NCBI RefSeq assembly: GCF_017348835.2
Contig: NZ_CP072314.1
From: Escherichia coli
GTDB lineage: Bacteria; Pseudomonadota; Gammaproteobacteria; Enterobacterales; Enterobacteriaceae
DNA: 60,072 nt
Direction: 5' to 3' (one strand)
A program made the position numbers. The stretch's first letter is position 1, and the number at the start of each line of letters is the position of its first letter. Below are positions 12,001-15,000 of the stretch, piece by piece.

Positions 12001-15000
12001 TTCAATCACTCCCTTTCGTTTATGTCCCACTTCTCTGTGGCTTAACTATAACTTCCGCGAGATGTGTTGCGTGGGACGATATAACCAATACCATACTGCC
12101 TGGAACGTATCAATAGCGGTCGTTTTCGCTTCAGTTTGGCGTTTCTCATGGATTTCTCATGCATCCTGCTCGGATTCACCACGAAATTTCATCAATTTTA
12201 TTTCTTCTTGTTCAACTTAACCCTACTCAAAATAAACTCATTCAGCCTTAATCTTTAAATCCTTTGTGATGGTATTTTCCCCACTAATTATTCAACCATT
12301 CTTCTAGTATGCAATCCAAACTACTGATTTTTAGCCGGTCTCTAAGCCCTCGCCTTCCGCTCCTTCTTTTAGTTATCTTCTCATTATTCTTACTCTCCCT
12401 CTCCTTTCCGTTGTAGCTTCACTCTCTTTAGAAATCATCACCGCCCCATATCTTATTTCTTTATCAAATGCACTATGCTCCACTATCGTCCCATTTAAGA
12501 ATCTTAGTACTCTGTTCACTGCTCTCTTTTTCTTTCCTGTAAATCTTTACTCCGAGTATACTATTTACATATCGACATAGCCGTTTGTTCCCTAGTTACA
12601 TTAGACCACTATATCTGCTCTGTCTTCAATCACGATCTTATTAAAACAACCCAACTCCGGGTAGAATAACATATCATCTGCGACACAGGCCATTAATAAT
12701 ATCAGACCTCGGCACCAGACCATCAGTGCAGCTCTGTCAAATAAATGTTGCTCGTCACTGTTAAGATGAATTTCTTTCATCGCCTCCATATTATCAGTGA
12801 CCTTATCAAAGACACCGAGCACTTCATACGCTCCCTCGATAACCTGCCCGACAATATCACCTTTATGTGGAACGCGGATTTCGCCAAAATTATTTCCGCA
12901 CACCAGGCCATTTGTGCAGACAAAACGAAAAATTCCGGGGATCATCTGATAACTGGATGAACCATCATGTGAATTAAGCAGGATAATTTCAGGAACTTCC
13001 TGCCCGTTAATATGCCCTTCCCTGCGAAGACGTAACATATGTTTACTGTATTCGCGACGTCCCAAATCACGAACCCGACTCTGACAGACAAAGAATGGCT
13101 GGAAACCTTCATCACGTAACTTATTGATGATATTGATTGTTGGAATATACGTATAACGTTCACTCCGGGACTCATGTTTATCACCGGAAAATACCGAAGG
13201 CACGAACTGCATTAATTCATCATCCGTTAAAGGACGTTCACGGCGGATGGAATTATACCGACCAAAACGGGAAGCTAATCGCATAACAGCTACTCCTTTA
13301 TGAAAGAATAAATTTAATAAAAAATTTTTCCGCTTAATATCATCCCTCCCGATCTCCATTAACAAGATTGCAACAATCAGGAGGGATATTCATCACATCC
13401 GGTCAGCAGATAGCCCGGATATCGAGGCCGGCACACTTAATCTGACGCAGGAACTGTTTGAAGTGATCGGCTTCCGCAATGTTGATATGGCGGAACTGCG
13501 TATCCACACCCCGGCTGAGCGCGTAGCTATAGCTGAAGGCCATCTTTTCCGGGTGGCTTTTGCGATATTTTTTCAGCTCAGTCAGGCTGCTGAATTCCAG
13601 GACGTCCCACTCTTCCCCGGTGTTTTTTTTCCTCCCGGCAACAAGAAGCGTGTACGACGCGGTGTTAACGTGGATATTTCGGGTACTCATCCTGCTTTCT
13701 CTTCTCTCTGGTTTTCAGCCCCCATCATCTTTTGAGTTTCGGGAGCCGCGGTTTTGACGTTTTGCGGGGACCTGCCTTTTGTTCCCTCCGGTATTCACCA
13801 TCACCTTTTTGAGAACCTTCGCCGCAAGGGGCATCACTGCCACGGCCTGACGCACCTGTCCTGGGCAGAACGCAAAATTTTTTACCGGTTTTTGGGTAAA
13901 AAATTTTGTGGGCTGTTCATTTACCCTGGACAGTCAGTGCGGCAGGTTGTGGCTGTATCAGCCCCCGGCGACAGGGACTCATACGGGTGTGTGGCACCCG
14001 GCAGGCAATGAGCAGGGGCCCGCCGCAACGACGGAGAGCGCGTGCGCGAAACGGCGTTGCCCCTTACATCCCGGCGGCCTTTTGCCGGGATGCCAGGAGC
14101 GCAGGCCACGGCGCGACAGAGGCGGCGCGACCGGAACGGTCGCTGCAAGCCAGGGTTTCGCGTCAGGGATGGAAGCCCGCCAGGGCGGAGACAGCTTCGC
14201 TGGCTCCGTTCACGACAGCCCGCCCCGTCAGGGGGACGCCCAGAAAAGCCATAAACAGGAGAGGAACGGAAAGAAGAAGAGGAAAAAGAAGAAGAACAAT
14301 AACAGGTACGGTAACCACAGAAAAATAACATCAGAAAAAAACATTCCGGACACATCACAAACAGGAAGGGTAACGGGCGACGCGTCAGCGTGGCCCGCTT
14401 CCCTTCCGGCAGGCGTCAGCCTGCCAGGGGTTTTCGCGCGAGCTGACAGGCGGCCTCCACCGCCTGCCCCTGTATCACCTGTTTCTGCTGCCCTGAAGGA
14501 TGTAGTGACCACCGAGGAAAACAGCCTGCTGATTCACCACAAAATCGCAGATTTCATCAACAATCTGTGCGGTGGTGAGCGGTTTCTGCCCCATTTCACG
14601 ACGCCGCGCATTAATCACGGCCCTGTAATTACGCAGAATTTCGCGGGTTTCTGTGCTGATATTCATGACATGTGCTCCCCGTCCAGCGCCTGTAACACAA
14701 CGTCCATTGCTTCGCGTTCCTCCCTGACGAACGCATCACCATCGCCCCCGTTCTCACTCCCGACGGCATACAGGCGCTTCATTTCACTGCCTGCCAGCGC
14801 CATCACTTTTTCCAGCATCACCGCCGGAACTGTCACCTGACGGCTGGCGCGCTTTTCCTCCATCAGTCCACGAACAACATCGTGAACAATGCTGACATCC
14901 GCACCATATTCAAAGGCATCGTCCAGCCGCTGCATGACGGTTTCCAGCTCATCGTCTGTCAGACTCCAGTCCTGGGCTATGTGACGCACATCCCCACGGG

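Follow-up and report, generated by a model that had tools for sequence, protein, structure and literature searches.

Genes and features of the locus

The window analysed here is the whole stretch of 60,072 nt from Escherichia coli (contig NZ_CP072314.1), and within it the genes of a plasmid leading region are separated by a gap that can now be explained; in public records it is either unannotated or given as a 'hypothetical protein'. The gap, at 13691-14474, runs from the ATG of a 95-aa gene to the stop of a 63-aa gene; the sequence-only reading was right in seeing an intergenic gap here but not in its length, which is 784 bp rather than 785 bp. It was also described as GC-rich, which agrees with a GC content of 59.3% against 45.3% for the whole window, with a peak of 70.7% at 14060-14250.

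13403-13690, - strand: ygeA homologue, 95 aa, first gene downstream of the probable promoter (homology to F)
14475-14666, - strand: 63-aa gene (orf63), last gene of the upstream unit (homology to F)
55275-56058, + strand: second identical copy of the whole gap (784 bp, 100% identity)

The gene order, ygeB-ygeA-gap-orf63-DUF1380-klcA, is the same as in F. The ygeA homologue is identical at 93 of 95 residues to the protein in the ygeA position of F, where Frpo1 lies upstream of ygeA and ygeB, and the 63-aa gene is identical at 61 of 63 residues to the F gene just before Frpo2. The exact F nic sequence GTGGGGTGTGGTGCTTTT is found on the + strand at 53142-53159, with nic itself at 53151 and the copy of the locus at 55275-56058 lying 2.1-2.9 kb beyond it. 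In F oriT the nicked strand is the one that carries this sequence; the + strand is thus the transferred strand and, with the flanking genes on the - strand, also the template. The placement near oriT, on the strand that is transferred, is that of a leading region, and ygeA and ygeB, both on the - strand, are templated by the + strand.

The second copy is part of a longer repeat, 12714-14878 being the same as 54298-56462 (99.95% identity, offset 41,584 bp), and appears to be the one locus reached again on a second turn of a single circular plasmid. The idea of a paralogous Frpo elsewhere in the window was rejected, since the only other copy falls in a terminal overlap of 2,165 bp and is this locus again. 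Megablast of the flanks 1-12713 and 56463-60072 against a plasmid collection gave zero matches, as did blastn of 9800-12713 alone, and no positional relation between these flanks and the plasmid sequence was found.

A member of the Frpo/ssiD/ssi family

Frpo is a DNA hairpin that has been studied in detail; through it a plasmid arriving in a new host as a single strand can turn on its first genes. It is very probable that the gap holds a class-1 single-stranded-DNA promoter of this Frpo/ssiD/ssi family, an element which is already known and is ordinary for an IncF leading region. The sequence-only reading had guessed at a structured single-strand promoter or initiation element and named Frpo/ssi elements for comparison; the guess is supported by the transferred strand, the position upstream of ygeA/ygeB, a long hairpin and the homology itself, with 13719-14066 aligning end to end with the ssiD/Frpo of F (D90178; 83% over all 351 nt, E = 1e-98). 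The same stretch also aligns with the ColIb-P9 repeats and with Frpo' sequences from Serratia and insect metagenomes. The conserved unit is larger than this alignment:

13711-14262, + strand: conserved leading-region repeat module of 552 nt (class-1 ssDNA promoter plus accessory hairpins)

The module has 97.3% identity to the Frpo2 region of F (upstream of ssb) and 87.5% to the Frpo1 region, with copies at 73-92% identity in Klebsiella and Enterobacter plasmids, and it typically occurs about three times in a plasmid (14,476 places across 5,000 records).

The long hairpin

13736-14052, + strand: Frpo/ssiD-type long imperfect hairpin, ~317 nt, loop at 13887-13894

Secondary-structure prediction on both strands, which had been suggested as a check, found the gap far more structured than chance, the + strand DNA folding at -190.9 kcal/mol (z = -7.3) and the - strand at -179.1 (z = -6.6), with neither energy equalled by any shuffle. 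On the + strand 13711-14125 alone folds at -106.8 kcal/mol (z = -6.6). What marks the family is an imperfect hairpin of ~330 nt that is conserved and beyond chance, and 13736-14052 is such a hairpin. The consensus structure is kept across 11 homologues, with 97.7% of cells paired compared to 37-46% when the partners were slid by 1-3 columns as a control; compensatory change is seen in 11 pairs, and the covariation score was reached by none of 500 shuffles. G-T pairs number 74 versus 7 A-C, which indicates that the + strand is the strand that folds. The lower 3' arm at 14031-14043 differs from both F copies.

Candidate promoter signals

13866-13915, + strand: A/T-rich apical palindrome (CAAAATTTTTTACC / GGTAAAAAATTTTG), inverted repeat I1, UP-element-like
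13927-13932, + strand: candidate -35 TGGACA in the 3' arm, paired with CTGTCC at 13856-13861
13947-13961, + strand: candidate extended -10/-10 region (TTGTGGCTGTATCAG), overlapping an internal loop

The precise positions given for -35, -10 and start are our own inference. TGGACA matches five of the six positions of a -35 and probably serves as one, the stem around it being nearly invariant; CCCTGGAC and TGTCC.GGG, which are mutually paired in the fold, are near-invariant across all aligned Frpo/ssi elements. The apical palindrome is conserved in the F and ColIb copies and may act as a UP-like element, by analogy with the A+T-rich UP element that Samuel et al. describe upstream of the -35 in Frpo. 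The candidate -10 region lies 17 helical positions past the -35 if the bulged TCA (13934-13936) is excluded, with mismatches at 13954 and 13957-13960; its match to a -10 hexamer is poor (CTGTAT or TATCAG) and the spacer holds the 3-nt bulge. A sigma-70 duplex scan of the hairpin stretch called no site, which is to be expected of a promoter that forms only in the hairpin.

An alternative geometry, with TTGAGA as -35 (13809-13814, in the 5' arm), a spacer of 17 nt and CATCAC, transcribing toward the loop, was disfavoured. The truncated Frpo2 with which Samuel et al. drove an anti-CRISPR gene from the T-strand corresponds to about 13711-13978 of the window, and in this working construct, ending at the equivalent of ~13978, that TTGAGA is largely unpaired; ColIb-P9 does not have the hexamer.

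Proposed mechanism and alternative functions

Beside the homology, strand, position, fold, covariation and hybrid origin observed in the present analysis, promoter activity and priming are attributed to the element by way of the literature on its homologues. Those of F and pESBL have promoter/primer activity as single strands only and give early, transient expression in transconjugants; in pESBL the start sites of the class-1 promoters have been mapped, and in F both Frpo1 and Frpo2 must be present for early expression of ygeA, ssb and yfjA. Upon transfer or mobilisation the + strand would enter the recipient 5'-first from nic (53151), bringing in the SLT gene, ssiE, ygeB and ygeA and then the promoter region. 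Once both arms were inside, 13736-14052 would snap into its imperfect hairpin of ~317 nt, a mimic of duplex promoter DNA to which host sigma-70 RNA polymerase could bind, with likely contacts at the -35 TGGACA (13927-13932), the mismatched -10 at ~13947-13961 and the A/T-rich tip as a UP-like element. Transcription would then follow the 5' arm and pass on through ygeA and ygeB, giving an mRNA that could also prime complementary-strand synthesis, and copying of the strand would remove the hairpin and turn the promoter off. By analogy with its homologues, the element would regulate the genes that come on first once the plasmid has entered, and this step bears on how resistance and virulence plasmids spread. 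The closest relative of the plasmid is pPE164, which has no relaxase call and is typed as mobilizable, an IS3-family element interrupting its tra genes. The promoter in the window could act only upon mobilisation of its plasmid in trans.

It is quite conceivable, if somewhat short of an even chance, that the main role of the element is as a single-strand initiation signal for complementary-strand DNA synthesis rather than in gene expression, with a short RNA polymerase transcript staying hybridised to its template and being extended by DNA polymerase. The region is directly homologous to ssiD, which was originally isolated as a priming signal, and according to reviews Frpo RNA primes DNA synthesis in vitro; in vivo ssp1/Frpo transcripts prime conversion to double-stranded DNA, with early rifampicin-sensitive conversion events downstream of ssp1a and ssp1b. 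Priming is compatible with a promoter role and not exclusive of it, however, and expression is what is lost in F, where deletion of Frpo1 or Frpo2 abolishes that of early ygeA, ssb and yfjA. Frpo also drives a reporter anti-CRISPR gene, and in every context examined the element is directly upstream of an RBS and gene.

It is improbable that the structure belongs to RNA, as a structured 5' leader of the ygeA mRNA or a + strand antisense sRNA. The - strand does fold well too (z = -6.6), and a start near 13965 in the 3' arm would have ~140 nt of the 5' arm transcribed as a leader that holds blocks invariant beyond the needs of pairing. Most of the hairpin is nevertheless upstream of this likely start site, the excess of G-T over A-C (74 vs 7) would leave the mRNA-sense strand with C-A mismatches, and no + strand promoter was detected by the scan. 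The sequence-only reading had offered an ncRNA as an alternative, which is unsupported by the Rfam search of 13500-16000, where there was no covariance-model match at E <= 1 and none at gathering score.

Protein coding, whether by the K/R-rich 118-aa + strand 'hypothetical protein' of F, a 145-aa - strand ORF or a leader peptide at 13715-13855, is very improbable. The scan of both strands does find five overlapping ORFs of 85-310 aa in the gap, the 118-aa ORF called in F by the NCBI annotation pipeline is readable in one frame in the window, and 'hypothetical protein' is annotated under the match in some public records. None of the five ORFs has a Pfam match, whereas among the flanking proteins DUF932 and the antirestriction proteins are above cut-off (DUF1380 slightly below). 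The F ORF starts inside hairpin H4, owes its K/R run to the (AAG)n tract and, through a 1-nt indel, has a different end in F than in the window; its frame is shifted by two 1-nt deletions in pNDM-SCNJ07, and in pKOX-137 it ends after 25 codons. The leader ORF loses its frame in one pKOX-137 copy through a 1-nt deletion. Conservation follows base-pairing and not codons. Coding was rejected for the gap on the lack of Pfam hits and the frames disrupted in homologues, and the statement that there was no convincing ORF holds.

The remainder of the gap

The rest of the gap is a conserved T-strand hairpin cluster at 14062-14250, an (AAG)n spacer prone to slippage, and hairpins resembling a terminator, which would close the klcA-DUF1380-orf63 unit.

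14062-14114, + strand: accessory hairpins H2 (14062-14097) and H2b (14099-14114), local folds
14121-14250, + strand: accessory hairpins H3 (14121-14151) and H4 (14153-14250; conserved core 14160-14227)
14250-14345, + strand: spacer rich in purines and poor in T; (AAG)n at 14271-14296, tandem repeat of a 14-nt unit at 14318-14344
14346-14474, - strand: three GC-rich stem-loops immediately after the stop of the 63-aa gene, then a U-rich tract; putative terminator/3' stabiliser

H2/H2b are present after every class-1 hairpin in six plasmids, and in the ColIb-P9 repeats a hairpin is kept at the H2 position with a different stem sequence. Compensatory pairs number three in H3 and two in H4, which has two invariant G-T wobbles as well, and in pKOX-137 and pNDM-SCNJ07 both H3 and H4 are also found behind a different promoter-type hairpin. 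A tentative suggestion, rather doubtful at present, is that the conserved unit is larger than the published Frpo, which would cover just its first ~330 nt, with H2-H4 and a T-poor simple-repeat spacer forming a 3' 'cap' shared by several unrelated classes of ssDNA-promoter hairpin. Such a cap could possibly be an insulator or replication pause, behaviour which has been shown for ssp2, that shields the promoter hairpin from unfolding or copying by upstream polymerases; alternatively it is possibly a loading or priming site. The H2-H4 cluster is the sole part of the gap that could add knowledge, its function being undescribed in the literature found.

The purine-rich run noted near 14250-14340 is real, with 14250-14345 being 79% purine, the 96-nt stretch beyond the 99th percentile of the window, and 14257-14300 reaching 93% purine and 2% T. 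It lies outside the promoter hairpin, though, and is a variable microsatellite spacer in the flank of the upstream 63-aa gene. Tandem Repeats Finder reports (AAG)8.7 at 14271-14296 and two copies of a 14-nt unit at 14318-14344; the tract exceeds that of the window by 21 nt in F and by 3 nt in KS-NP019_P1, and in pA1708-KPC a different repeat, (CAGTAG)n, occupies its position. Pairing of the tract with the pyrimidine-rich RBS complement, which would close the module, was rejected as the duplex energies were no better than those of dinucleotide shuffles (in seven contexts, 17 to 181 of 200 shuffles did as well), and across these contexts it is T-poor composition alone that recurs.

The stem-loops after orf63 (14364-14407, 14408-14425 and 14427-14472) may terminate the klcA-DUF1380-orf63 unit or stabilise its 3' end. 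As - strand RNA 14346-14474 folds at -86.6 kcal/mol (z = -5.1), and the stems are conserved in F and in Klebsiella pneumoniae and K. oxytoca plasmids, the first differing in sequence in K. oxytoca. They are followed by UGUUUGUG...GUUUUUUUCUG, and a simple consensus terminator scan called zero sites there.

A hybrid of Frpo1 and Frpo2

13691-13710, + strand: ygeA-specific leader and RBS complement, the Frpo1-context end of the hybrid (three-way alignment)
13711-13847, unstranded: Frpo1 x Frpo2 crossover interval, a 137-nt tract identical in F Frpo1 and Frpo2

On the alignment with F the window copy is a Frpo1/Frpo2 hybrid, with a ygeA-side end of Frpo1 type and the remainder of Frpo2 type. In the three-way alignment all informative sites in 13691-13710 match the Frpo1 region of F and none match Frpo2, with a single clean switch from Frpo1 to Frpo2 type between 13710 and 13848. 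The hybrid equals recombinational loss of the ssb-yfjA-yfjB-psiB-psiA-flm block that separates Frpo1 and Frpo2 in F. Couturier et al. thought recombination between Frpo1 and Frpo2 possible, and the window copy is a concrete natural IncF example of it, in a plasmid lineage that persists despite losing ssb, psiB, psiA and flm.

Comparison with known systems

The window copy is most like Frpo2 of F (ssp1b; upstream of ssb-yfjA-yfjB-psiB-psiA), with 97.3% identity over the 552 nt of 13711-14262 and the same upstream flank of orf63, DUF1380, klcA, the (AAG)n tract and the hairpins after orf63. Unlike Frpo2, it would by its position drive ygeA-ygeB rather than ssb. It also has Frpo1-type sequence in the 20 nt that precede the start codon, an (AAG)n tract shorter by 21 nt and a different sequence at 14031-14043.

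Frpo1/ssiD of F (ssp1a; D90178), reportedly characterised in vitro by Masai & Arai in 1997, has the equivalent position upstream of ygeA-ygeB and the same hairpin plan. The window hairpin differs in that its central and 3' parts are of Frpo2 type, with compensating changes on both arms, and the upstream neighbour is orf63 rather than the hok/flm of F.

The ssi1-3 elements of ColIb-P9/pESBL, which are IncI1 class-1 ssDNA promoters, share the stem of the -35 region (TGTCCGGGGG / CCCCTGGAC), the A/T-rich tip and a trailing hairpin followed by a GAGCGC...GGCGCGAC motif. Identity is only ~77-79% over ~90 nt, the lower stem is unrelated, and H3-H4, unlike in the window, are not seen in the 328-nt repeats of ColIb-P9.

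The IncI plasmid pO111-CRL115 (Venturini et al. 2013) likewise has a single hybrid Frpo repeat, which begins as one copy and finishes as another and lacks the intervening genes, although the backbone and the block lost (9.7 kb) are different. Venturini et al. 2013 took the other plasmid to have gained an insertion, whereas for the hybrid in the window the polarity is clear from the comparison with F.

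Identity and coding content of the gap

The 784-bp gap between two genes of the leading region is a Frpo-type single-strand promoter (a single-stranded DNA promoter hairpin of F-type plasmids) and initiation element, which is already known and very common. Its limits are set by the two genes:

13403-13690, minus strand, ygeA (95 aa), whose start codon bounds the gap
13691-14474, the gap
14475-14666, minus strand, orf63 (63 aa), whose stop codon bounds the gap

The sequence-only reading had guessed at such an element, and the guess was right. When compared with published Frpo/ssi sequences (Supplementary Table 2, Samuel et al. 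2024), all 351 nt of the F ssiD/Frpo (D90178) align to 13719-14066 with 83% identity (E = 1e-98). The same stretch aligns to Frpo' candidates from Serratia and insect-metagenome sequences and, less strongly, to the ColIb-P9 repeats. In comparison with the F plasmid (NC_002483), identity is 95% between 13711-14700 and the orf63-to-ssb interval (Frpo2) and 92% between 13358-14262 and the hok-to-ygeA interval (Frpo1), with the two F intervals having 559 nt in common at 89%. In F, ygeA/ygeB are preceded by Frpo1 and ssb-yfjA-yfjB-psiB-psiA by Frpo2, and both elements are needed for early expression in transconjugants (Couturier et al. 2023). Such elements have been named class-1 ssDNA promoters, with start sites mapped for the pESBL homologues (Wen et al. 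2025), and in vivo the RNAs made from them also serve as primers for strand conversion (Fraikin et al. 2026).

The description of the gap as GC-rich and without a convincing ORF is correct, its GC content being 59.3% against 45.3% for the window and reaching 70.7% within 14060-14250. Overlapping ORFs of 85-310 aa are present, for which no Pfam match was found; among the neighbours DUF932 and the antirestriction protein score above cut-off and DUF1380 slightly under. On the plus strand of F, a hypothetical protein of 118 aa, rich in K and R, is predicted by the NCBI annotation pipeline; it starts at an ATG within one of the accessory hairpins (H4) and its basic run derives from an (AAG)n tract. 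This frame stops after 25 codons in pKOX-137, is frameshifted in pNDM-SCNJ07 and ends at a different point in the window. It is best read as spurious.

The main hairpin

Secondary-structure prediction, which had been proposed for both strands, finds each far more stable than shuffled sequence (z = -7.3 for the plus and -6.6 for the minus strand). As single-stranded DNA the plus strand folds over 13736-14052 into a single long, imperfect hairpin that has 13887-13894 as its loop; for 13711-14125 the predicted folding energy is -106.8 kcal/mol (z = -6.6). Eleven homologues from F, Klebsiella pneumoniae, K. oxytoca, Enterobacter, Serratia and insect-metagenome elements were aligned, with pairwise identity down to ~70%. 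In the consensus structure 97.7% of cells are paired, a figure that falls to 37-46% once partners are shifted by 1-3 columns; two-sided changes occur at 11 pairs and the covariation score is reached by none of 500 shuffles; these controls leave shared ancestry in and are taken as supportive, not as a probability. As G-T pairs outnumber A-C pairs by 74 to 7, it is the plus strand rather than the mRNA-sense strand that appears selected to fold.

Plasmid context and direction of transfer

The window is IncF-type plasmid DNA, with Rfam matches to the traJ 5'UTR/FinP, CopA and sok, the last (43344-43499) being separate from the gap locus. The gap region matches at least 5,000 plasmid records, mainly Escherichia and mainly conjugative, with about three matching places in each; the top match (100%) is pPE164, 41,684 bp and typed mobilizable. 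The stretch 12714-14878 recurs at 54298-56462 with an offset of 41,584 bp and one mismatch. We read 12714-54297 as a single lap around a circular plasmid, with the recurrence being untrimmed overlap. On this one-lap reading the true left-hand neighbours of the gap lie at the far end:

52445-52828, traM
53142-53159, plus strand, exact F nic sequence GTGGGGTGTGGTGCTTTT, between the SLT/orf169 gene and traM
53149-53751, SLT/orf169 gene
53746-53934, match to F ssiE (96.8%), at the end of the SLT gene
54206-54949, minus strand, ygeB (DUF932), the intact copy spanning ~54128-54949

The nic and ssiE matches fix the position of oriT and the direction of transfer. In F the nicked strand carries the nic sequence and enters the leading region 5'-first; with the exact nic on the plus strand, the plus strand is the one transferred, and the minus-strand genes ygeB, ygeA, orf63, DUF1380 and klcA are templated by it as well.

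Between the flanks, 1-12713 and 56463-60072, lies a pPE164-like circular plasmid, covered exactly once (41,584 bp) with a further 2,165 bp of overlap. The flanks have no match among 72,556 plasmids. Their composition is strand-biased (41.6% T in the first, only 10% G in the second), and 1-12713 holds no stop-free stretch of at least 250 codons in any frame. By appearance they are either junk at the ends of a long-read contig or DNA without a known match. A 254-aa DUF932 ORF at 12601-13365 is ygeB joined at 12714 to the odd flank.

Candidate promoter elements

The best-conserved stem of the family pairs TGTCC.GGG on the 5' arm (13857-13865) with CCCTGGAC on the 3' arm (13924-13931). Promoter elements are predicted within the hairpin, including a candidate -35, TGGACA (13927-13932), which agrees with the consensus at 5 of 6 positions. 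TTGTGGCTGTATCAG (13947-13961) lies 17 helical positions beyond it if the bulged TCA (13934-13936), which is not in Frpo1, is left out, and overlaps a mismatch and internal loop. The A/T-rich palindrome at the tip would occupy the place of the UP element, whose position in Frpo was given by Samuel et al. The start site would then lie near 13963-13968 on the 3' arm, opposite ~13826-13831, with a predicted leader of ~140 nt. The 3'-arm geometry is consistent with the functional Frpo2 construct of Samuel et al., whose end corresponds to 13978; this makes an alternative on the 5' arm (TTGAGA, 17 nt, CATCAC) less probable.

Inside the predicted ygeA leader there is a minus-strand ORF of 28-46 codons (13715-13855) that has a good SD-like AAGGUGAUG. 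Since a 1-nt deletion breaks its frame in one K. oxytoca copy, a conserved leader peptide is improbable here.

Accessory hairpins

Conservation between Frpo1 and Frpo2, as well as across genera, extends over 552 nt (13711-14262), more than the ~330 nt given for the Frpo element in the literature. Beyond the main hairpin, local folds of the plus strand give four further hairpins:

14062-14097, plus strand, H2
14099-14114, plus strand, H2b
14121-14151, plus strand, H3, three pairs with compensatory changes
14153-14250, plus strand, H4, two compensatory pairs and two invariant G-T wobbles

Profile searches of six plasmids find them in the same order 3' of every class-1 hairpin. In ColIb-P9 the H2 position is still occupied by a hairpin, whose stem differs in sequence. 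In pKOX-137 and pNDM-SCNJ07, H3 and H4 are also present 3' of a long hairpin of another type that precedes an antirestriction gene.

In the window the intergenic space preceding klcA (15586-15846) resembles the 'Frpo' 4' candidate listed by Samuel et al. at 85% identity, and the DNA that precedes the antirestriction gene in F at 96%. It is probably the class-2 ssDNA promoter ssp2, at which strand conversion is reported to stall. H2-H4 might, in the manner of the ssp2 roadblock, act as an insulator or pause on the transferred strand. The cluster is undescribed and is the sole lead worth following in the region.

Purine tract and hairpins trailing orf63

The purine-rich run noticed near 14250-14340 is real, with 79% purine over 14250-14345 and 93% over 14257-14300, and holds an (AAG)8.7 array (14271-14296) and a 14-nt unit present twice (14318-14344). 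It is confined to the Frpo2/orf63 context and is longer by 21 nt in F and 3 nt in KS-NP019_P1; in pA1708-KPC a (CAGTAG)n repeat takes its position after H4 (20167-20282). In six of seven contexts the tract position is poor in T (3-9% T), and the spot after H4 seems prone to simple-repeat expansion that is still T-poor. Specific pairing of the tract with the RBS complement was no better than chance in the seven contexts.

Right after the orf63 stop, 14346-14474 on the mRNA-sense strand has three GC-rich stem-loops and then a U-rich stretch, with a predicted RNA fold of -86.6 kcal/mol (z = -5.1). The stem-loops are kept in F, K. pneumoniae and K. oxytoca plasmids, the first stem being rewritten in K. 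oxytoca. The segment is read as a putative terminator or 3' stabiliser of the klcA-DUF1380-orf63 unit; a simple terminator scan made no call there. In pA1708-KPC a group II intron (ltrA, 24122-25789) lies between a truncated Frpo module and the hairpins trailing orf63, and a group II intron RNA is also matched elsewhere in the window, at 29610-29687.

A hybrid of Frpo1 and Frpo2

In a three-way alignment of the window with F Frpo1 and F Frpo2, all informative sites in 13691-13710 are of Frpo1 type, 13711-13847 shows no difference between the two F copies, and from 13848 onward the informative sites are nearly all of Frpo2 type. The single switch persists when the flanking genes are added and is also found in plasmid KS-NP019_P1. 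The flanking proteins agree with it, ygeA being identical to F ygeA at 93 of 95 residues and orf63 to the product of the F gene adjoining Frpo2 at 61 of 63. Judged on the site types and these proteins, the locus arose by homologous recombination of Frpo1 with Frpo2, an event that removed ssb, yfjA, yfjB, psiB, psiA and flm; the leading region here (13691-14666, compared with 9647-16320 of F) is without ssb, yfjA, yfjB, psiB, psiA and flm/hok. The recombinant Frpo is a record of the loss of the ssb-psi-flm block. The ygeA-Frpo-orf63 architecture is in the minority, occurring as one continuous place in 80 of the 5,000 best-scoring records. Couturier et al. (2023) had raised the possibility of such an exchange between the two promoters, and an equivalent hybrid repeat is on record for the IncI plasmid pO111-CRL115 (Venturini et al. 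2013).
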